A stretch of 62,730 bases of DNA, the filler included, from Basidiobolus ranarum (taxonomy: Eukaryota), in NCBI GenBank assembly GCA_040143965.1. It is 8 parts of 8 records of this genome, joined end to end, with 100 filler letters (N's around TTAATTAATTAA, not from the genome) between each part and the next. Parts side by side here need not be neighbours in the genome. Positions count along the whole stretch, not along the records: positions 31,475 to 39,230 come from JASJQH010007945.1; 7 more parts are not named here. One strand, written 5' to 3'. How positions within the stretch are numbered: position 1 is the first letter of the stretch; each line of letters opens with the position of its first letter. Made by a program: the position numbers and the translations under genes. The notes under the pieces were generated by a model, which had not been told where the DNA came from, did not search any database, and worked only from the letters and a program-made list of their open reading frames with translations. Positions 3,061 through 39,230 of the stretch are shown piece after piece.

Positions 3061-4402
3061 ATGGATCCTTTTTCACTTCACAATTGGGAAGACATTACTC
3101 CCATAAAACAAGATGACGGACCCAATCCCTTAGCACCGATAGCTTACGCACCTGACTGTATGTACTTTTTGGTATTCCTTTTAGTGGCTTGTATTTACGT
3201 TGTTTCAACTAGATGTGAATGCGATGGATTATTACCGTGCACTTGCCAAGGTAGAGGAAATATCTGAACGAGCTTTGGATCTAACCTCCTACATTATTGA
3301 GATGAATCCGGCTCACTACACTGTTTGGTATTGAAATACTACGAAATGATATCTTTCAACTGTTGAGTCGCATATTGAAACTGTCAATCTCTTCTAGGAT
3401 TTATCGTGAAAAGTTGTTGTTTGCTCTGAATAAGGACCTAACGGAAGAACTGGATTTCATTGACGAGTTCGCTGAGGAAAACCCGAAATGCTATCAATTA
3501 TGGTATGTAGCAGTTTATATGGCTCGTAGAGTATTATTTAAACTTTGAATAGGCATCATCGACAAGCTGTTGTGGATAAATTGGGGGACCCAAGTAGAGA
3601 GCTGAACTTTATCAATGGTATCTTGGCTGACGACTCGAAAAATTATCATGCATGGAGCTATAGGTGAGTTCTGTGTGTACTCTTTCTATTGATCACCCTA
3701 TTGATTTAAAGTTCACAAATATAAAAATTTAGGCAATGGGTTAATGCTCACTTCGAACTCTGGGACCAAGAGCTCAGCGATATCGACTCTTTGCTAGCAG
3801 CCGATATTCGAAATAACTCTGCATGGAATCAAAGATTCTTCGTACTTACCAAAGGGCCAAATAAGCTTACTACAGAAACCATTGAAAGCGAAATTCCGTT
3901 AGTATGAACTAGTTCAATAGACTTCTTGAACAGTAGGGACTTATATTCTTAAACAATCTAGCTATGTTATTTCTAAAATTCGTCTGGCGCCTCACAACGA
4001 AAGTCCTTGGACATACCTTCGAGGGTAGAAAGAATTCTATATCATTGACTGACCGATTGATCACTAACTGTTGATTGTTGTTTGTGGTTTAGAATCATTG
4101 AGTACACTGGATACGAAAAGCTAGATTTCATTGGGGATCTTTGTCAAGAGTTAAAGGATTCGCAATCTCCGTACATGTTCGGTACCTTGGTGGATATTTG
4201 TGAAAAGAAAGCGCGCAAAGGTGACAAGCAGTCAATTGATTTAGGTGTTGCTGTAAGTCATCTACTCTATGGTTAATTTTATGTAGTAAGGGAACTAACC
4301 TGTGTATCTTAGACGTGTGAAAGACTTGCCAACCATTTCGATATTATTCGAAAGAAATACTGGCTCTACAGAAAGGAGCACTTTTTATCTATTGCTTGCT
4401 AA
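3061..4402 (+). CDS. RAM2: Farnesyltransferase/GGTase-I alpha subunit (multi-exon)
   Basis: Spliced reading gives QDDGPNPLAPIAY..YVNAMDYYRA, NPAHYTVW, NPKCYQLW, SKNYHAWSY, RNNSAWNQR, PHNESPWTY, DIIRKKYW (PFTA repeats); about 7 short GT-AG introns; TAA at 4400-4402. Confidence 0.93.
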
Positions 4403-4588
4403 TTTGCCACACCTTGAACCCACTTGAAGCATCCATAAACGATGATTTAGTCCAATAAATCCAACTTATGTATAGTTTAAAAGATTGGTGTCTATTTTGT
4501 TACCATCTTAGCTTATAGCTGCTACAGTGAGCAGAGAACGGCACACTAGCTGTATGTACATACTACTTTGATATACTTGGAAGGTCAG

Positions 4589-5665
4589 TTATTGGGCCAT
4601 GGATTTATTTCTTGACAGGATTTCAGTTAATAAAGCAATGTAACAGAACTCGTATTGTTTTACAGTTTGAACCATACTTCGTCGTTGGGAACGCAATTTC
4701 ACAACAATATCGAAGACCAGATCGATACTGTGATCCGAAATTTTAGGTAGAAGCGATAATGCACTATTGATCGTACAAAAAGTCCCGGTTCTGCCACAAC
4801 CTGCACTACAATGTACAACCATTGGCCCACACTTGAAACCATTCTTGCCACTTTCTAGAGTGGATTCTTGTTGCTTCTGGTTCGTTAATTTAATCAAATT
4901 TAGAATGGTTTGTGGATGTGATTGAATACCATGATCTGGCCAGTCTAAGGTGTGATACTGGGTAACCGTAAGCTCTCCAACGCATCCTTGGGTGGGAGTA
5001 TTAAGAATAAGACGTAGTGTACGAACTACCCAGTTCTCTTCAGCAATATGATCTTCACGTAATAAATGCACGGTTAAACCTAATCCTGGGAAATATAATG
5101 AAAGTTGGGTGGAAGTAGGCCAATAAGGTTCACATTTTACTCGACCAGCTTCGAACACCTTAGTCAACATAACGATAACTTGAGATTTTTGTTTCCAAAT
5201 CAATTGTCAAAAATCCTTCACGGTATTCGGTTTAGGTCCTTGAGTGACTATATATTCTCGAGGACTATTAGGTAGTTGGATATAACTGGCATTTATATAA
5301 TCGCTATCGTTTATTCCCACTTTCTTTAACTTCACTCTATTACGGTCGTAGGGAACAATATCGGAGTATCGGTTTTTCGAAACATTGTATTCCTCGTAAG
5401 CATATAGATTACAATAAGGATGGTTGGGTGTATTGCATGCTTTCAAATGATTCCCTTCTATCTGGTTAATCTTGGCATATTTCTTTGAAAGTATACGTAA
5501 AGAGGGTTCTAAATCCTCAGTAACCTCTTGTAAAAATTGGGGTAGGTTCTTGTTTAGTGGTTGGTTTTTGGAGTTCCCTTTGGAAAAGCAAATAAACGGA
5601 TAATACCAACAGACAACCATTACGATTACTATCACCATCGACATCACCATAACCATAACCATCAT
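4589..5665 (-). CDS. Classical protein tyrosine phosphatase with one in-frame TGA (5207-5209); 5' end unresolved
   Basis: ORFs 5207-5665 and 4589-5203 share one frame: KNRY, DYINAS, TQGP, DF*QLIW, KCEPYWP, WPDHG, VHCSAGCGRTG, QRRSMVQTVKQY. Likely splice acceptor near 5578. Confidence 0.9.
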
Positions 5666-25092: not shown

Positions 25093-27755
25093 TGTTAAAA
25101 TATTTGGGAGCCTATTGGAAGTGATTTGGAGAATTAGAGGAATTGTTGGTTTCCACTTATTGGTTTGTTGAGTAGAAAGGTGACAATTTTAGTTTTGTCA
25201 AGATGTAAGCAAACTGACATGTAGGATGTGTTAAGGAAGGTCCAAGGATCATGTGTGAAAAGTTTGGGGCTTCTAGCACAAGTTTGAAATATCTATATAT
25301 CTGAGAACTTTTAAGTTGGTAAAAATATTCTAACTAAATTCCAATTGAGAATGATGGCTAATATCTTAGTGAAATAAAAGATAACTAAGTACTAAGCTAT
25401 ATATGACTATATAGGTGTTTAGGCGATGCCAATTTCAACACTCTCCCTCTACTAAATAGTCATATAAACTAATCCTAACAAAGGTCTAAATTTCTCAAAT
25501 TTCTGTCTAGCTAAAGGTTTGGTTAATATATCAGTAATCATATCTACTGTGGAGCAATAAGTTAAGTCAATCAACTTACTTTCTATAGTCTCTCTAATGA
25601 AGTGATACTTAATATCTCTATATTTACTTCTATTATGAAACATGGGATTTTAAGCTAATTTGATCCAACTTTGATTATCTTGAAATATTGTAGTTGGTGA
25701 GTTTTGAGAATAACCTAGATATGTTAAGAGTTTTCTTAATCATGTTGCTTCTTTGTTACTTTGCAGGCAGCCATGTATTCTGCTTCTGTTGTTGAAAGTG
25801 CAATTGTAGGTTGTTTCATTGAATTGCAAGAAATAGCTCCATTGCAGCAAAGAAATAAGTATCCTGTCGTAGATCTCCTGTCTTCAATATTTCTTCCCCA
25901 ATTTGCATCTGAATATCCCATCAGAGCAAATTTTGATCCAGAATATGTTTCTTTTGAGCACAGATCCACAGTACCTTCAAATAACTGAAAATCTGCTTAA
26001 CTGCTATGATTTGATCAGATCCACAATTTTGAAAATATTGGCATATACCTCCCACAGAATATGCAATATCTGGTAGTGTTCTAGCCATGATATACATCAA
26101 ACTACCAATCATAGATTGATAAAGAAATTTCTGGCTTTAATTGAATCCACAAACATCTGATTTGAACCATTTTTAGTCAAGTTAAGATTTGTCTCCATTG
26201 AGGTAGATACTGTGTCACATTCTTCCATTTTAAGCTTCTTTTGTATATCTGGGATATATTTACACTGGTTTAAAGTTATTGTTTTGGTATTTCTATCTAT
26301 CTTAATTTGGATTCCAAGATAGTATGTCTGTTCACCAAGATCAGTCATTTTGAATTTGGCAGTTAAGCTGGATTTGGTTTCTTGTAAGTCTTCAAGTCAT
26401 TGGTTGCTATAATAAGTTTGTCTATATATAAGGCTAATAAAGCTAGGCTTGTTTTATCTGGCCTGAAGTAGATACTATAGTCAGCGTTACTCTTTTTGAA
26501 TATGAGTGTTTCCAAAAAAGCATCTATCTGGCTATTCCAAGCTATTGGAGAGTGTTTTAAGCCATAGAGTGTTTTCTGGAGTCTGCAAACTTTTTTAGCA
26601 CTTTCTGGGCCAACAAATCCATCTGGCTGGCTCATATATATCTTCTCAGGAAGCTCACCATTCAATAAAGCAGTTTTATGTCCATTTGATGTATAATAAA
26701 CTGATATTTGGCTGAAATTGCCAAAATCAATCTAATTGAATTAAACTTTGCTACAGGAGCAAAATTTTGTGTATAATCTATTCCTGGTGTTTGAGAATGG
26801 CCTTTGGCTACTGGTCTAGTCTTTTACCATTCTATATTGCTATCATAGTTGTGTTTAACTTTAAACACCCATTGCCAGGCAACTGCCTTGCTATCATCAG
26901 GTAAGTTGGTTAAAATCCAAGTTTGATTATCAATCATAGCCTGGTACTCATCACCCATGGCAGATTGCCAGAATTCTGTGTGCAGGTCATTCAGGGCCTC
27001 TTTTATAGTCGAGGGTTCATGTATCTGAGCTGTGCAGGCATAGGCCCAATTTTGGGACTTATAGATACAGTAATCAGGGCAAACATTGATCCAACTTGAT
27101 CTCCTGGTTTGGGATAAAGGTACTACAACTTCTGGCATTGTATTGGGCCCTTCAGCAGGCAAACTGTTGCTTGAAGAGTCCACAAGAAAGCTATTTTCTT
27201 CATTGTTTTGATTTGATTCAATTTGAATGAATGGTTCAGGAGTTAATTGATGTTGGTCATCATCTGAGGTCATTTTGGGTGAAAATTTTACATTTTTATT
27301 AAACAAAACATCCCTGGACCTGATTAACTTGGAAAATCTGGTATCATAGAGTTTGTAGGCCTTAGTTTGAGTCCAATTGCCCAGAAATAAGCATTTCTTA
27401 CTTTTTGGATCAAATATTGATCAGTTTTGAATCATGGTTTTTACATAAACAATGCATCCAAAGATCCTCAAACATTTTACATCAGGTTCAACTCCAAACC
27501 AAGCTTGATATGGTGTAGAGTTGGACAGACTTCTAGTAAAACTCCTATTGCTCAGATTTACAGCTATAGCAACATATTCCACCCAAAAGTTATGAGATAA
27601 ATTTTGTGCATTTATTGTAGATCCTGCCATTTCTATCATAGTCCTGTAAGCTCTTTCAGCAACTTCATTTTGTTGAGATGAATAGAGGGCAGTCATTTCT
27701 TGCTTAATTCCATGACCTTTGCAAAAGTGCTTAAAAAGTGTTGAACAATATTATC
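25093..27755 (-). mobile_element. Ty1/copia retrotransposon family A, 3' half (INT-RT-RNaseH-PPT-3'LTR), frameshifted
   Basis: QQNEVAERAYRT (INT), EPSTIKEAL..WQSAM, IYMSQPDGF, LYGLKHSP (RT), GYSDANW..RRSTTGY, ALSTTEAEY, DILTKPL (RH); PPT AGAGGGAGAG abuts the LTR at 25093-25440. Confidence 0.95.
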
Positions 27756-28274
27756 TGTTAAAGTATTTTGCAGCCTGTTGAAAGTGGTTTGGAGAATTAG
27801 AGGAATTGATGGTTTTCACTTATTGATTTATTGAGTAGAAAGATGACATTTATAGTTTTGTCAAGATATAAGCAAACTAATGTGTATAATATATTAAGGA
27901 AGGTCCCAGGAACATGTGTGCAAAGTTTGGGGCTTCTAGCACAAGTCTGAAAAATCTATATATCTGAGAACTTCTAAGTTAATAAAAATATTCTAAGTAA
28001 ATTACAATTCAGAATAATTGATAATATCTTAGTAAATTTTAAGATAACTAAGTATAAAGTTATATATGACTATATAGATGTTTAGGCAAAGCTAATTTCA
28101 ACACTCTCCCTCAATTAAATAGTCATGTAAACTAATCCTAATAAAGGTCTAAATTTCTCAAATTTCTGTCTAGCTAATGGTTTGGTTAATATATCAACAA
28201 TCATGTCTTCTGTAGAGCAATAAGTCTATTAACATATTCTCTATAATCTCTGTAATGAAGGGATGCTTAGTATC
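27756..28274 (-). mobile_element. Second family-A copy: 3' LTR (27756-28103), PPT and RNase H tail
   Basis: Near-duplicate of 25093-25620, including CTCTCCCTC and the TKPLARQKFEKFRPLLGL-coding tail. Confidence 0.9.
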
Positions 28275-31474: not shown

Positions 31475-31563
31475 CAACTTTCTACCCAATAAATCAATAA
31501 GTAAAACCACCAATTCCTCTAATTCTCCAAACCACTTCCAACAGGCTCCCAAATACTTTAACA
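31475..31563 (+). mobile_element. 3' end of a family-A LTR
   Basis: ...CCAACAGGCTCCCAAATACTTTAACA. Confidence 0.9.
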
Positions 31564-34021
31564 TTAATGTTGGCCTTCTTAAAGAAGTCTTTTTGTCCCT
31601 CCTCACTAACTATAAGTTAGGCAAATAGAAAGCTTCAGCTGATTCAATAGCCTTCAAAGTTCAAATACTCTAGTATCAGGATAAGTAGTTTCAATGCTAT
31701 TCTTACTAACTGGTAAGCTTGAAGTATCCTCATCAGATAGTTTCTTATGAAGTGGCAAAAGTTGTTACTGCTTATCAGATCAGGGTCAACCTTCAGTTTA
31801 GAGACAAAGTTCAAATGTTTTTTAGCTTACTCTTGAAGAAGAATGAAACAATCAATGTGTTTAAGAGCAGAATAAAGAAAGGGGGAGGCAAGAAAGTTAC
31901 TAAGGTAGCTATAAAGACAATAATAGAGCATATTAATGAGGTCAAGCTTGCTATTTTGTCCAGAACTATTGGATATATAACAGATGAATTTCTCTCCTCA
32001 GACAATTTGAATGTAATTCAAATTCTTTTTGGCTTGTATTTGAGAAATAATTAAATTACACAAGAATCAATCTATTACAGCTGCAAAAGCAACTCTCAAA
32101 AGCACATAAATACATGTTAAAGTATTTGAGAGCCTGTTGGAAGTGGTTAGGAGATTTTGAGAAATTGGTGGTTTTCACTTATTGCATTCACATTTAAAGT
32201 TTTGTCCAGATGTAAACAAGCTAACATGTAGAGTGTGTTTAGGAAGGTCCCAGAAACATTTGTGCAGAGTTTGGGGCTTCAAGCACAAGTTTGAAAAAAT
32301 CTATATATCTACAAACTTCTAGGTTGGTAAAAATATTATCAATTGCAATATACTAGAAGTTCTCAAATATATAGATTGGTCAAGCTTGTGCTAAAAGCCC
32401 CAAACCTTGTATGCATGGTCCTGGTGTTGAAATTAGCTTTGCCTAAACACCTATATAGTCATATATAGCTTAGTACTTAGTTATCTTATAGTTCACTAAG
32501 ATATTATCCATTATTCTCATAAGGAATTTACTTTAAAGTTCTCAAATATATAGATTTTTCAAACCTGTACTAGAAGCCCCAAACTTTGCACACATGCTTG
32601 TGGGACCGTTTTTAACATATTCTATATGTTTGTTTGTTTATATCTTGACAAAACTATAAATGTCAACTTTCTACTCAATAAATCAACAAGTGAAAACCAC
32701 CAATTCCTCTAATTCTCCAAACCACTTCCAACAGGTTCCAAATACTTTAACACCTGGGACTTTCTTTAGCACATCTTACACACTAGTTTGTCTATATCTT
32801 GACAAAACTATAAATGTCAACTTTCAACTCAATAAACTAACTAGTAAAAATCACCAATTTCTTTAGTTCTCCAAACCACTTCTAACAAGCTCCCAAAATA
32901 CTTTAATAATATGCAGACAGTCAAGTAAGTGGAAAGCTCTCCAAAATAAGCTAGTCAACTGCTTTCTATTAAGAAGGAACTTCATACCATCCTAAATGAC
33001 AATCAATATGTATATTTTAAATATTTCAATTTAAAAAAATTCCATCACCACCCACTAGATAAAGAAGTAGTATGGGGAACTGAAATTGACCTCACATCAA
33101 AAGTAATGAAGCCACAAGGAAAAAGAAAGTCAATGAGGTTTAGAGGTATGATTTACACAGATGGTGTAGGTGTGTTGGTGTTAAAGCAAAACCACAATAC
33201 AAAGAAGAAAGGTGGTGGTGGCAGTACTGCCAAGTCTCTTGCTTCAGAAGAGGAGTTTCAGTATGTGGAGAAATTGGAAAGAGAAGAGTTGTTGGACAGT
33301 GTTGGTAAATGTGTGCTAATTGATCCTGGACGTCATAATTTGCTATACTGTATGCACAAAGAAAGTACCGCTGAAAACAAAATGGTTTACCAATAAACAA
33401 GAAATCAAAGAGCAATTGAAACAAAATGCAGAAAATTCAGGAAGCTCAGATAGAACTTAAAGACAGACCAAGTCATCGCAGCTGAGCTTTCCCTATCATA
33501 TTTGAAATCTTTAACTGGCAACAAAGACAAGTTTGCCAAGTATCTTCAAGAAAAAATCAAAATGCTAGCCAAATAAGGCTTCCAGTTGTACCTCCTTGAC
33601 GAGTTTAAAACTACAAGTCTGCGCCCTACTTGCCAGAACGGTGAACTGGAGAGAGAGAGAAAGGTATTCTATTGTATACAATCACTTCTAAGGTAAACGC
33701 TTTTTACATGCAAGTAAAAAATTCCGAATTCAAACTTAATTTCTGCTCTGGTGCAAAGCCACAGTGTTTAAAGGTCGTGACCAATACTACTGAGGCAACT
33801 ACTGAAGATTCTCACCATCATCTTTGGAATCGTAGCCTGACTGCTACTCTAAACTTTAGACATATCCTTTTTAACTTGCGCTCAAATGGGCAAGACCAGA
33901 AGGGTTTTACAGATTGAAGGAACCTCTCTCCACCGGGTATAAAAGAATGGTTATCTCGTCAGCCAGCCGCAATCGATTAACGAAAAATGCAAATAATCCT
34001 CAGTTGTTATCGCAACACTAA
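31564..34021 (+). pseudogene. Fanzor1 (eukaryotic TnpB-like RNA-guided endonuclease) relic, interrupted by LTRs at 32115-32908
   Basis: Collinear motifs: EVFLSL, QIVSYE..KVVTAY, SIYYSCKSN..KH, NCFLLRRNFIPS, FRGMIYTDGVGV, CVLIDPGR.NLLYCMH (RuvC-I), LLDEFKTTSLRPTC, WNRSLTATLNFRHIL (RuvC-III, D lost), RPEGFYR; multiple stops and an internal deletion. Confidence 0.82.
32115..32908. mobile_element. Inverted pair of family-A LTR 3' halves with a nested solo LTR (32425-32752, TSD CCTGG)
   Basis: Starts TGTTAAAGTATTTG and ends TACTTTAATA; the inner LTR TGTTGAAATT...TTTAACA is flanked by CCTGG at 32420-32424 and 32753-32757. Confidence 0.88.
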
Positions 34022-34599
34022 ACATCTGATACAGAGTAAGTCTTTGGACACTTCTTCTTTTGACATGTGTCTTCACTTATCTCCAACTTATTGTGATCGT
34101 CTCATATGTTTTGCGAAATGTCTAATTGATTGCTTTAATTCGTCACATTCTAGATTAAAACACGATAAGGAATACGATCATGGGGGATAGGAGACATGCG
34201 GGCTAGATAGGATTGAATTTCTATGAAAGAACAAAATCAGGTTCGAAAGGAAGGATTTTACTTAGCTCTTTTAATGGTGACGTTAAGAGGATTTGTGAAT
34301 AGTAAATGGTTCATTTCAAAATGGTGAAGATATTTAGAAATAGCAAATGTTTGGATAATTGAGGCGGGAGCGTCCGAAGATCCGTGGATCCGTAGATATA
34401 CCACAAGAGAAGGAATTTGCGAAGAAATCCCTGAAAATGGAACAACGCCACCCCAACCCACCTTGATTTGGTGGGGAGCGGGGGTGGACATACCTTCGAT
34501 GATTGTGTGTAGAATGCATTCTTTCTTGGAATTACATATATGGTAGGTATAGAAATTTCAAATTGAATAAAATTAAAGCATCTTTGGATGTGTACAAAG

Positions 34600-35887
34600 T
34601 TAATATTTATCATCGTAGTGGTTCTCTGTATCCACTGAAAGTCCTTTCACCTCCCATTGATCAGGTTTATAGTCTACTGTGTATTCCAGATCATCCTTCG
34701 TAATTGAGTCCCAGTATTTATAAATCATCATCACCGCAAATAATGTGCACAATACGGTGAAGAATAATCCGTCAATATAGTGGGAGATCAGGGTGCATAT
34801 CTCTGTGGTAAAGCCCAGAAGGATAACTTGTCCGACAACGAATGAGAAGGCTGCCATGATAATCTCGCCTACAATTAGTGGTGGTTAGCCTATGATTACA
34901 TACTTCCATATCCAAAATCCTATTACTTACCTAAGGGCCAACGATCGGTCAACGTATTGACGACAAGAATTACTTGTAGAATAAAGTATATCAAAAGAGC
35001 TGCCCCATTAAAGATGAAGTAGAAAATCCAAAGTATGATTGGGTTCTGTGAGCTCAACACCCCAGAACTACCGAACATATCTTGAAAAGTGGCGATAGAG
35101 ATGAAGAAGATCAATCCCCAAACGAGCAATGATGAAATACGGATTGACTAAACGAACCGGGTTCCATTTGAGTATATTTTGTAAACATATGAATCATAAA
35201 CCCATGAAGCTTACCCATAAAGACAAAGGAGTACCATCTTCAGCAAATTGGAACCCAACAAACCCGTTCAGCAACAAACACCATACAGATGCGGTTATCA
35301 GGCCAACATGCGCTGCAGTAAACCACTATAATTTGGTAATTGGAAGTAACAGTGATAAGTAAACTACAAGGCTGCATTGATAACATCCAGATGTACTTAC
35401 AGGATACACTATAGAAGAAATAGGAATAATCCCCCCGATCAGTAACAGTTCCATGAGTACCGTTAAAGTGTACAAGTAAAAAAAGCACAGCATCTCTTGA
35501 CGACCTGTGAGTTGGATAAAGAACATTAACACTTATCAAAAGAATCCCAGGCTATGGCCTAGTCAAATATTAACTTACCAACTGCAGTATATTTAACTCG
35601 AATGTTGTAAATCATAACTACTGATATGAGTATAGCGATGATATAAGCAGCCAGTGCTCCTTTTTGTTTGAAAAAACCGAATTATTAGTCAATCGAGCAT
35701 GCCAAGATACAAAGTTTCAAAGTCTATTATTACCAGGTTGAAATATTAAAAACCCGGCAAAGTCCAAGTTACGTGAAGAGCATTGCGGGATTGTACGGGA
35801 TGCTTGCGAGCCAACCAGAGGACATACCGTAAAGGCAAGTGTACTGCAAAACCTCTCGAAGCTCCCAAACTTGAATGCGGCCAACAT
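34600..35887 (-). CDS. CHS7: Chitin synthase export chaperone (multi-exon)
   Basis: [76 protein letters not shown]. Confidence 0.95.
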
Positions 35888-38284
35888 TGGATATTAGAGT
35901 GAGTTTACGATGGTGAAAGTAAAGCTGAGAAGGTAAGGAAAGGTGAAGGAATCTGTGAGAGATCGGTTCGAGAGGAGAGCACCTAAAATGAGCAAGTCAA
36001 GGCACTTGATGGAAGTGGCAAAGTCCAGCCGTATCGAACGAAGATAGCGGTGTGAGAACGACTCAAGATTCAATGAATAGTGAGATGAGGTATACGATTA
36101 ATATATATTGGGACAGTTAAACTGAAAGCGAGGGCAATAATTGGAACAATATGAATAGACAACAGCTCGACCCAGCTTCTGATGGCGCATATCAGAGCTT
36201 GCTGACACCTGCCAAATTGGGTATCAATAGAAGTTTTGAATGAATCTGACTCCGATCTCCAATTCTCCCTAATTAGCCAGAAATAATATGATCAATGACC
36301 ATGACAATAGGTTATAATATATTAACACGTCGATAGGGAAAGAATTTCTAATGATAATGCCAATATCCCTTGAAACGATCAACGGCGAAGTCAATGCCGC
36401 ACCAACTCCAACAATACTATTACAACCCATTGCCAATCGCACTATCCCATGTAGGTCATTATGCGAAGAGTCAGTTATGGTGGCCAACAGCTACGAGGTA
36501 ATTGTGATTGAGAATGTCCAAGATTAAGTCGAAGTTACATCATTTCTGGAAATAGATTAAAATAGACATTGCTAAATTTAGCCAAATATCGCTCATTCCT
36601 GCTCTATATTAGGATCACTTATATACGAGAGATTGGAAACATGTCTATGATGAATTATTCAGGGAAATGGAGGTGCATGATTGGTCAGCTTGATATTGGC
36701 TTTAAGCTTACAACATCGATGATTATTGGATCCAAATTGTGACGATACTGCTGGGATGCCTATAAAGGAAAATATGGGAGAACCTAGGTTTCCTAGTGCA
36801 AGTGAGCAAAGTCATTGGTCTCCACAAGACAAAAGCATGAGGTCATCAATTCCTGATTATCTACATTGGACAAGGCTGTGTAGGTATCGTCAGGAAGTGG
36901 GTTACGTAAATCTGACCAAAAAGCAGGAGCAGAGTTGGATACCAACTGTCTTGTGGGTGCAGCAGAAGTATGGCCAAGCGATGGAGAACTGGGCTTTGAT
37001 CCACATTCAGCTCGAGTCCCCTAACCCTCGATAACTTGGCGTTTTTATATTAGCCAGGAATTACAATCTTTGTTATTCTGGCATTCCCAAATCTGGTATA
37101 ATGATTATATCTTGTCGTTGGGCTGATTTACGAAGTGTCTTGCTGGCCACTCACAACTCATAAAGTCTATATATATATATATATTATAGGCTCGGACTTT
37201 CTTTTACACGACTTCCCATCATCAGGCAGACTAGATGGATGTATCGGGTGGTGCTTGCAATCTCAGATATTATTTCCATGATACAGTTATAATTCATACC
37301 AGTGTGTATTTAGAGCATCAAGTCTTGTGTGATCGGACTTTCTTGTCCACTGCAATATCGTTTGTTACCTAGCTGACACTGTTTCACTCAGGTCAGACCT
37401 GGCTTTTATCCGCCTGATGGATGGCTCCTGATGTGATGGTAATTGTACCTGGGAATAGTCATCGGCATCGTCATCAGCCTTGTTTCGAAGGATTTCTGCC
37501 ACTTTTCAAGGCGTTGGAAAGAGATGCCTTTAGTGTGTGACAAAGTCTTTATCAAGTTCCTCATCGTTCAAGGGTTGAGGGTAACATACAGTTGGGGCTG
37601 AGTAATGATGTGCATTTCATTGCATATCGCTGCAAGAGAATTCACTGGTTACCTGATATCTAGTCAGCACAGCCATTTGGTGCTCTATATTGGCCATGAT
37701 CATTCGCTCATATAGTTGAGGTGATGTAACCCATTTATTAATATATTGGTGACTTGTGTACATCACTTGGGGATTGAATTACCTTGTAATGAGATGGCTT
37801 GCATCCATGGTAACCGACCAAGGTGAAAGACTGAGTTTCATGTGAATCCAATTTAGATGCTCTCTATTTATCGGAATTGTTGTCTTTTTTATACTGTGAT
37901 AATGGAAAGGAGACAGAGAGATGTTCGAGTTAGAAACTAATGGTTTTCATGCCAACAGAAATGGTGGTTTCAAGGTTTTGTAGTATTAAACTGAAATCTA
38001 TGGCGGGGATGATTATTGAATAACAAGCGGTAGGTGATGAAAAAGTTGCAAGAACTCGTCTAATTACTGGCTAGTGGGCAAGTGGTGCTCTCAACGAGAC
38101 TTCGCATGGAGTAGAGACTATTTCATAAATAGAAGCGGTGCAAAGAAACTGTAGAGCCAACTCGTCAACATGATAGTAAATGGTGATTAAGAGATTTGCT
38201 CATCTTACTGTATTGTAGAAGTGAAATGGTCGATATAGTAGGTATATTTTTGCAGTATATATAGAATATTTCTGATGGAGTTTT

Positions 38285-39230
38285 CTAGCTAGACTTGGTA
38301 GAATATTGCGATATCCGCATCGTGCTAGACTCTCGTTTTGAAGAGGTTCTCCTCGGTATACTACTACTAGTACTACTTCTCGAAAACGATGCTGCTTCAG
38401 ATGGCACAATATCCTTTGATAAACATGCTATTGGTAAGGCACCCTCTCCACCTCGCGTTATATTACGGCCTACCCCCCAGCCATCCTCGAAGGTCATCAA
38501 AACCATAACTTTGTCGTGTGGTAAGATTCGTAACTCATCTGGCAGTGTAGGTTCGTAGGGATAAACACAAGTATACGTCGGTAAGGATGAGGATACAATA
38601 GTAGCACAGTCAGTCTCCAAAGTAGAGCTCCGTATTTTAGTGCTAGGGAGTATACTCAAGTCAGAACCTTTAAAACTCTCTCCAACATCCATTTGTTGTC
38701 GTTTCTTTTTGAAATAGAGCCAAACACCAGTGACCAAACCAATGATACCTAAGCATCCTATCACAATGGGAACGATTAAGATAAGTTGATTTCTAGAACT
38801 AGATCTAGAGTTCTTGCATGACCGAACATTCTCCGAATTACAACATGAAGCGCGAGGGTTAATGGTGCAATATACGCAGAGTGCTGGAAGATCCTGGGGA
38901 AGTGAATAACCTAAATTAACAGAAAAGATTGAGTATTTCTTCCTAATTGTGAAATACTAAACAGTGGGGAAATTTCATACCACAAACAGTTTGTGCTGAA
39001 TCTTTCGGCAGAATGCATTGTCCCTGAGTGCCGTTAGTCGGTGAATGATTGCACCAGGCTTGTGTTAGGTAAGCTTGCTTCGAAGCAGTGTCTCCAGGAG
39101 ATTTACATGCGGTATCGTTACCCCATAAAAATTGCCAGTCGATAACAAATTGATTGCAATCACTTTGGCAAGTTGGGGGTACTGGGTTTTTTGAGTTACA
39201 CAACTTCGAAGAGGCATCCTCTAAAAGATT
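38285..39230 (-). CDS. Single-pass membrane protein with Cys-rich ectodomain and cytosolic SH3 domain (5'-truncated)
   Basis: Cys-rich exon, intron about 38911-38980, TM helix followed by KKKR, SH3 (YPYEPTLPDELRI..FEDGWGVG..EGALPIACL). Confidence 0.85.

Follow-up and report, generated by a model that had tools for sequence, protein, structure and literature searches.

A Fanzor1 transposon remnant in Basidiobolus ranarum and its relationship to Rhizopus elements

Introduction

Fanzor1 proteins are eukaryotic, TnpB-like RuvC nucleases. An intact Fanzor1 binds a guide RNA made from the 3' end of its own gene and cuts matching DNA. We analyzed a stretch of 62,730 nucleotides from the Basidiobolus ranarum assembly GCA_040143965.1 (the window), in which a first-pass annotation had read a series of short, stop-interrupted reading frames at 31564-34021 (+ strand) as the remains of a single Fanzor1 gene hidden under long terminal repeat (LTR) insertions. 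Are these frames one Fanzor1 gene, what carried it, and how did it come to be in Basidiobolus? We found that 31564-34167 is almost certainly a decayed remnant of a non-autonomous DNA transposon with terminal inverted repeats (TIRs), in which Fanzor1 was the only gene.

Similarity of the reading frames to Fanzor1

We made a read-through translation of positions 32950-33696, with X at each stop codon (P0001, 249 residues), and used it as a query in protein searches. Against all solved structures (phmmer), this core had only two PDB matches at E≤1: the Fanzor1 of Parasitella parasitica (PpFz1; 9cf0, E 3.2e-38) and that of Spizellomyces punctatus (SpuFz1; 8gkh, E 9.6e-14). A search of longer proteins found 16 relatives (437-2000 amino acids), all members of the Fanzor1 family. 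The 14 with a named source were from Rhizopus or Helicostylum, in agreement with the Mucorales-like label that the first-pass annotation had given the family. The best of these relatives, P0002 from Rhizopus arrhizus (577 amino acids; E 1e-80, 69% identity to P0001), matched the same two structures (9cf0, E 1.6e-140; 8gkh, E 3e-50). An HMMER scan of 1.84 billion representatives gave 508 matches to P0001 at E≤0.001. Fanzor1 families have been reported in Rhizopus, Mucor and Phycomyces, and also in Spizellomyces and Allomyces (Table 1 of PMC3627910).

The similarity ran through the whole locus. P0002 matched the window core with E 3e-74 (tblastn), well beyond chance, and four relatives together gave a single colinear set of tblastn matches on the + strand, from 31563 to 34000, with the frame changing along it. 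No second Fanzor1 copy was found in the window with these four queries. The peptides that had been quoted in support of the gene, FRGMIYTDGVGV, CVLIDPGR (Asp codon GAT, 33322-33324), LLDEFKTTSLRPTC (Glu codon GAG, 33601-33603), WNRSLTATLNFRHIL and RPEGFYR, were all found where they had been placed. Cutting out the LTR block at 32115-32908 fused ..KHINT to ICRQSS.. in frame, as proposed, and the joined sequence was colinear with that of the relatives (KHIKAYYRLSS).

The alignments also located the catalytic positions. The catalytic residues of SpuFz1 are given as D383, E541 and D606 in the PpFz1 structure report (PMC11423790). In the phmmer alignments they fell on the IDP Asp, the LLDEF Glu and the WNR[S] position of the window. 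A hallmark of Fanzor proteins is that the canonical RuvC-II Glu is replaced by Pro or Gly, with an alternative Glu about 45 residues downstream (PMC10530073); in P0002, the alternative Glu is 34 residues past the Gly of ..LGNWS.. by a hand count on the sequence. The published Fanzor signature is D-x(125,275)-[TS][TS]-x-x-C4 finger-x(5,50)-RD (PMC3627910). Based on these similarities, we take 31564-34021 to be one degraded Fanzor1 gene. Most relatives also carry the precomputed label PF26935.1.

Lesions in the gene

The copy is heavily damaged. We counted 10 premature in-frame stops, at least 4 frame-shifting indels, a deletion of ~81 codons and the 794-bp LTR block. On the 5' side, Fanzor homology begins at 31563, at residue 65 of relative P0004, so that the first ~64 codons are gone, cut off by an LTR fragment and the end of the contig. 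The homology reported across 31564-34021 was recovered, and the left limit of that span proved to be the end of the LTR fragment that opens the contig at 31475. The N-terminal part (tblastn 52% identity to P0002, E 9e-31, and 39% to P0004) has five in-frame stops (31626, 31671, 31686, 31707 and 32052) and a 3-nt deletion near 31881.

Past the LTR block, the WED/RuvC-I core is 68% identical to P0002 over 170 amino acids (tblastn). It has stops at 32993, 33032, 33394 and 33451, and a 1-nt deletion near 33056 shifts the frame. The RuvC-I Asp (IDPxxRD), aligned with SpuFz1 D383, is retained. The core ends at an in-frame deletion. The tblastn segments stop at P0002 residue 352 and restart at residue 434, on overlapping window coordinates (33564/33559), and the gap occupies columns 506-588 of our alignment A1. 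This matches a deletion that had been proposed between KYLQEK and KMLAK. Lost with it is the strand bearing the canonical RuvC-II position (..LGNWSAG.. in relatives). The alternative RuvC-II Glu, aligned with SpuFz1 E541, is retained.

The changes that had been noted in the zinc finger and in RuvC-III are both present. The first Cys of the zinc finger is changed to Arg (TGC to CGC), Cys 2 and Cys 4 are retained, and the third Cys is apparently lost, in a region that aligns poorly owing to deletions of 32 nt (near 33653) and 4 nt (near 33685). A stop lies upstream, at 33574. The C4 zinc finger (TNB) is therefore not intact in the window copy, whereas relatives carry CxxC...CxxxxC; the defect is a lesion of this copy and not of the Fanzor1 family. 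In RuvC-III, WNRD has become WNRS (GAT to AGC) at the position aligned with SpuFz1 D606, so the third catalytic Asp is lost. The last part of the gene has deletions of 2 nt just past the intron described below, 1 nt near 33889 and 6 nt near 33951.

Between the two halves of the zinc finger lies what remains of the family's single short intron. We identified it by comparison with a Rhizopus-type element on a metagenome contig (locus L001, described in the next section). Splicing out the L001 intron (4038-4096, 59 nt, GT..AG) gives exactly P0002. The window remnant matches the L001 intron at 43/58 positions, with GTAAAC in place of the GTAAGT donor and CTG in place of the CAG acceptor. The first-pass annotation had read the frames as one protein; they do belong to one gene, and part of the frame change near 33667-33761 is the intron remnant and no mutation. 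The single open frame expected after splicing is absent from the window copy. Given the stops, frameshifts, deletion, LTR insert and mutated splice sites, we filed the locus as a Fanzor1 pseudogene and not as a working member of the family, and this copy is predicted to be unable to make a protein. Coordinates are collected in Table 1.

Table 1. Positions of the Fanzor1 remnant, its transposon end, the LTR material and the linkers in the window
Positions	Strand	Feature
31475..31563	+	3' end of a Ty1/copia LTR (ends ..CTTTAACA); opens the contig
31564..32114	+	N-terminal part of the Fanzor1 pseudogene (REC/WED side), equivalent to P0004 residues 65-247 and P0002 residues 1-131
32115..32908		794-bp insert made solely of pieces of one Ty1/copia LTR family
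~32115-32337	inverted	3' LTR piece in the insert
32424-32752	+	one roughly full-length LTR copy in the insert
32755-32908		further 154-bp 3' LTR piece in the insert
32909..33564	+	Fanzor1 pseudogene, WED/RuvC-I core
33564..33565	+	site of in-frame deletion, ~81 codons (P0002 residues 353-433)
33565..33692	+	RuvC-II alternative Glu and first half of zinc finger
33693..33750	+	58-nt intron remnant
33751..34021	+	second half of zinc finger, RuvC-III and C-terminal tail; TAA at 34019-34021
33994..34071	+	gene end and 3' untranslated region; putative guide RNA (omega RNA) region
34072..34167	+	right TIR of the carrier DNA transposon, ends ..TTAGATTAAAACACGATA; ~39 nt shorter than in L001
7778-7877, 15651-15750, 23514-23613, 31375-31474, 39231-39330, 47073-47172, 54904-55003		linkers

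The carrier transposon and its right end

We found that the gene is followed by one end of a transposon. Scanning metagenome contigs yielded 6 loci. L001-L004 were informative; L005 (24% identity) and L006 (42%, both for the best segments) were weak and were not used. L001 encodes P0002 (99.6-100% identity in two exons). Its TIRs of 135 nt (1721-1855 and 4446-4580) are 89% complementary and enclose a 2.86-kb element in which Fanzor1 is the sole gene. In DNA, the N-terminal part of the window gene is 71.7% identical to L001 and the WED/RuvC-I core 77%, with a 1-nt gap at 33056. The sequence downstream of the window gene (34072-34167) matches both arms of L001, 4484-4585 (+) and 1818-1721 (-), and is identical to it at 66/96 positions. 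In Rhizopus-type relatives, the 135-nt right TIR ends with ..AAAACACTAT. When four ends were aligned, similarity stopped at a common terminus, ..TTAGATTAAAACAC(T/G)AT(A), and all flanks beyond it differed, which places the end of the window element at ~34167. This is 146 nt past the stop codon, compared with 219 nt in L001. Judged from the homology of its right TIR to both TIRs of L001, Fanzor1 is carried here by a eukaryotic transposon.

Some observations weigh against this reading of the locus. The left end of the carrier element is not in the contig (31475-39230), and a search for it through the window matched only the right TIR. A Pfam search with six window fragments and the read-through core gave 0 families at E≤10, and even in the relatives the matches to PF07282 (TNB zinc ribbon) were sub-threshold, at 14-22 bits compared with a cutoff of 26.3. 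As no curated profile was matched, the family assignment rests on similarity to the solved Fanzor1s.

L001 itself has two further features. Within a T-run at 2415-2430, one extra T leads to a stop past ..INVDFF. This stop splits ~115 N-terminal codons (MEPPLKIITVKSS..) off from P0002 as annotated, which begins with an internal Met. Either L001 is a broken copy too, or the extra T is a homopolymer sequencing error. At 4596-4612, sixteen bases past the end of the right TIR, ATAGTGTTTGAAACAC is similar to the beginning of the left TIR (ATAGTGTTTTAATC) and may mark the border of another element next to L001. No target-site duplications were recognizable at the L001 TIR ends.

Phylogeny and a probable horizontal transfer

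Closest to the window core are four B. ranarum proteins of 158-204 amino acids, with 79, 78, 71 and 65% identity. The first-pass annotation had suggested that intact siblings might exist elsewhere in the genome. All four relatives proved to be fragments, at least two of them (P0173 and P0020) with internal deletions, and the 16 longer matches were not from Basidiobolus. No intact B. ranarum sibling was among the proteins found, which is weak evidence given that protein databases rather than the assembly were searched. That an intact copy survives elsewhere in the genome is a bolder idea, less likely than the transfer proposed below. Many annotated "hypothetical proteins" in this family, among them P0005, P0004, P0173 and P0020, appear to be gene predictions made on damaged copies. 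P0004 reads into the intron (..HGLLRYFYT). P0005 has an extra Pfam label, PF01282.26, and its C-terminus does not align with the Fanzor1 family.

The host is not a Mucorales fungus, as an open reading frame on the same contig (38285-38953, - strand) is 100% identical to a partial B. ranarum protein. Basidiobolus belongs to the Basidiobolomycota and Rhizopus to the Mucoromycota. The difference in phylum between this host and the Mucorales had been missed in the first-pass annotation, as had the intron, the surviving right TIR and the contig boundary.

We built a careful maximum-likelihood tree of 38 rows and 254 core columns, rooted on three Coemansia proteins. It replaced an earlier, quick tree of 49 rows that had no outgroup from beyond the Mucorales; 18 rows were dropped and 7 added. 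The rows left out were two on long branches (P0039 and P0041), two that were represented by retained rows (P0042, with the same kept columns as P0199, and P0024, almost the same as P0209) and 14 Rhizopus and Helicostylum near-duplicates. The window and the four B. ranarum rows formed one clade (support 99/97). This clade fell inside a 22-row clade (100/99), in which the other named rows were from R. arrhizus/delemar, R. microsporus and Helicostylum, and which was itself nested within further Mucorales rows (97/83 and 97/89). Forcing the Basidiobolus rows to group with Coemansia, outside the Mucorales rows, cost 52.8 log-likelihood units (approximately unbiased test, p-AU 0.004); the p value is optimistic, since this constraint was picked after the tree had been seen. 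The path from the window to the Rhizopus copies was 0.48, and that from R. arrhizus P0002 to R. microsporus P0007 was ~0.4 (branch lengths of the same tree summed by hand). The distance between phyla is thus of the same order as the distance within a genus. In quick trees, the Basidiobolus clade had appeared as sister to R. arrhizus/delemar, with a support of 81 by the Shimodaira-Hasegawa-like approximate likelihood ratio test (SH-aLRT). In the careful tree this node is a polytomy, and we therefore claim no specific Mucorales donor.

Together with this nested position, the non-coding parts that can still be aligned to the Rhizopus-type copy (intron, 3' untranslated region and TIR) lead us to favor horizontal transfer. 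We suggest that a Fanzor1 TIR transposon probably crossed between Rhizopus-like Mucorales and the Basidiobolus lineage, multiplied there (at least 5 copies seen) and died out. The element would have entered the Basidiobolus lineage from a Mucorales-like donor and would have decayed after entry. The authors of the PpFz1 structure speculated on transfer of this kind for Mucorales Fanzor1 (discussion of PMC11423790).

The main alternative to horizontal transfer is ancient paralogy with losses. In this case the Fanzor1 family would already have been present in the common ancestor of Basidiobolomycota and Mucoromycota and would have descended vertically. Fanzor1 is old and widespread in early-diverging fungi, including the five genera named above (PMC3627910), and we found relatives in Coemansia and Bifiguratus as well. 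Single Mucorales genomes also contain many paralogous families, and where such families coexist, conflict between gene tree and species tree can arise from ancient paralogy and loss. However, vertical descent does not lead one to expect the Basidiobolus rows to be nested in the Mucorales clade under a Coemansia root, at the cost given above for moving them, or the window-Rhizopus path to be so near to that within Rhizopus. Nor would non-coding sequence be expected to align still, at 43/58 positions in the intron, 34/47 in the 3' untranslated region and 66/96 in the TIR. We regard vertical descent as unlikely, although it is by a wide measure the most credible of the alternatives.

It is very improbable that the locus is a working gene, whether with its stops in unrecognized introns or with the 148-amino acid open reading frame at 32950-33396 as a domesticated fragment. 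In its favor, an intron is known in the family, both the RuvC-I Asp and the alternative Glu survive, and gene callers have annotated similar short B. ranarum fragments as proteins. Nevertheless, two of the stops (33394, Y to TAA; 33574, E to TAA) replace conserved aligned residues, within 170 residues that are colinear without gaps. Part of the RuvC fold is gone with the ~81-codon deletion, both splice sites of the intron carry mutations, and an LTR cuts off the start. We give just as little credence to Mucorales Fanzor DNA having been misjoined to a Basidiobolus contig, or being a contaminant: the assembly is highly fragmented, with contigs of ~7.7 kb that break in repeats, but the interrupting LTR family recurs on at least 5 other window contigs, four B. 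ranarum proteins on other contigs are nearer (65-79% identity) than most Mucorales relatives (best 69%), and past the TIR end at 34167 the contig continues into host DNA through unique sequence.

Putative guide RNA region

By analogy with known systems, the guide RNA of this element would have been encoded at the gene end and in the 3' untranslated region. Omega RNAs of the Fanzor/TnpB type come from the 3' end of the gene and abut the right end of the element (PMC10432273 and PMC10530073). Here the window is 77% identical to L001 over 60 nt, and 34/47 aligned positions of the untranslated region are identical. The omega RNA of PpFz1 (71 nt, Table S3 of PMC11423790) begins at the 3' end of its gene, and the word GTTATCGC near its beginning also occurs around the window stop codon, as judged by eye. 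At the position that corresponds to the 3' end of the PpFz1 scaffold, ~23 nt of L001 have no counterpart in the window. Also by eye, the flanks of GTTATCGC could form a first hairpin, with the loop TTAnCG and with stem sequences that differ in PpFz1, the window, L001 and L002. Single-sequence folding was no better than that of shuffled sequences (z -0.16 for the window, and -1.39 and -0.01 for L001 and L002), and we claim no RNA structure here. An Rfam search over the whole contig gave only 4 chance-level matches, all far below the gathering scores.

Comparison with known Fanzor and TnpB systems

The closest solved and biochemically validated relative is PpFz1 (PDB 9cf0-9cf3; Xu et al. 2024, PMC11423790). 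PpFz1 and the window family share TDGVGV, GKCVL(I/M)DPGRRDLLYC, L(L/I)DEF(K/R)TSS-CxxC and WNRD. PpFz1 is intact and is described as cutting DNA with a 5'-ATN transposon-adjacent motif (TAM) (PMC11423790), whereas the window copy is dead. PpFz1 also has ~100 extra RuvC residues (chain positions 986-1092, compared with P0002 residues 365-375) that R. arrhizus P0002 lacks. These are probably the cyclophilin-binding FRI domain described in PMC11423790. In that case, some Rhizopus Fanzor1s do without the FRI domain. The Rhizopus-type relatives lack the insertion, and the deletion in the window copy runs across the same point.

The best full-length match is to the Fanzor1 elements of R. arrhizus/delemar (P0002, P0003 and P0171; 69% in amino acids, 70-78% in nucleotides). 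The Rhizopus-type copy and the window share the intron position, the 3' untranslated region and the TIR terminus, and differ in the phylum of the host. Rhizopus Fanzor1 families have been named "ROr" (Bao and Jurka 2013, PMC3627910). One of these, the MuDR-like ROr-4, is reported to have 9-bp target-site duplications (PMC3627910), whereas none could be recognized at the L001 ends.

SpuFz1 has the same RuvC-TNB architecture but is much more distant, as seen from its E value above, and its omega RNA and TAM (CATA) differ (PMC11423790). The bacterial TnpB proteins of IS200/IS605 and IS607 are the ancestral family. They share the D..[TS][TS]xx-C4 zinc finger..RD signature (PMC3627910), and their guide RNA comes from the right end of the transposon (PMC10432273, PMC10530073). 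Fanzor1 differs from TnpB in its alternative RuvC-II glutamate (PMC10530073), its larger size, its introns and its carriage on eukaryotic TIR transposons.

The functional interest of the remnant is low, as this copy is dead, the mechanism and structure of the family are solved, and intact Rhizopus relatives are already public. Its interest lies in the host. The locus adds a further phylum to the hosts known for the Mucorales Fanzor1 subfamily, and the nested phylogeny and alignable intron, untranslated region and TIR make it a testable case of transfer of a transposon between phyla. If true, this would be concrete evidence that transposons with RNA-guided nucleases spread horizontally among early-diverging fungi. 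Our literature search found no paper naming both Basidiobolus and Fanzor. Among the papers listed for horizontal transfer of transposable elements in Basidiobolus and Mucorales, none addressed such a transfer.

Contig setting and LTR material

The window is cut into eight pieces by seven linkers of the form N44-TTAATTAATTAA-N44. The seven complete pieces decrease steadily in length, from 7,777 to 7,731 bases, which indicates size-sorted contigs of a fragmented assembly. Features on the two sides of a linker are therefore not neighbors. The Fanzor1 remnant lies right at the left-hand end of the fifth piece (31475-39230, 7,756 bases), and nothing to the left of 31475 is a true neighbor. Ordinary host genes accompany the remnant on this contig. 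The host gene near the other end of this contig (38285-38953) encodes a membrane-anchored SH3-domain protein with a 41%-identical paralogue in B. ranarum.

The first-pass assignment of the insert to LTRs held up. The LTR unit is ~330-350 bp long, is bounded by TG..CA (TGTTGAAATT...CTTTAACA) and has copies on at least 5 other window contigs, frequently at their ends. The fragment that opens the contig (31475-31563) is 88-96% identical to other copies over 89-94 nt (blastn). Twice on the minus strand, at 28104 and 25441, the LTR unit comes straight after a polypurine tract (gagggagag) and the end of pol. The DNA between these two copies matched RVT_2 (E 4.3e-23) and a retroviral SH3-like domain. 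The polypurine tract, the pol end and RVT_2 identify the insert as Ty1/copia LTR material. No target-site duplication was recognizable at the LTR block in the Fanzor1 gene.

The region at 25093-28104 (minus strand) was itself unusual. The 2.3 kb between its two LTRs is a stop-ridden pol that starts abruptly past the first LTR. The region represents copia elements, nested or truncated, from a high-copy family that is found at the ends of several contigs as well.

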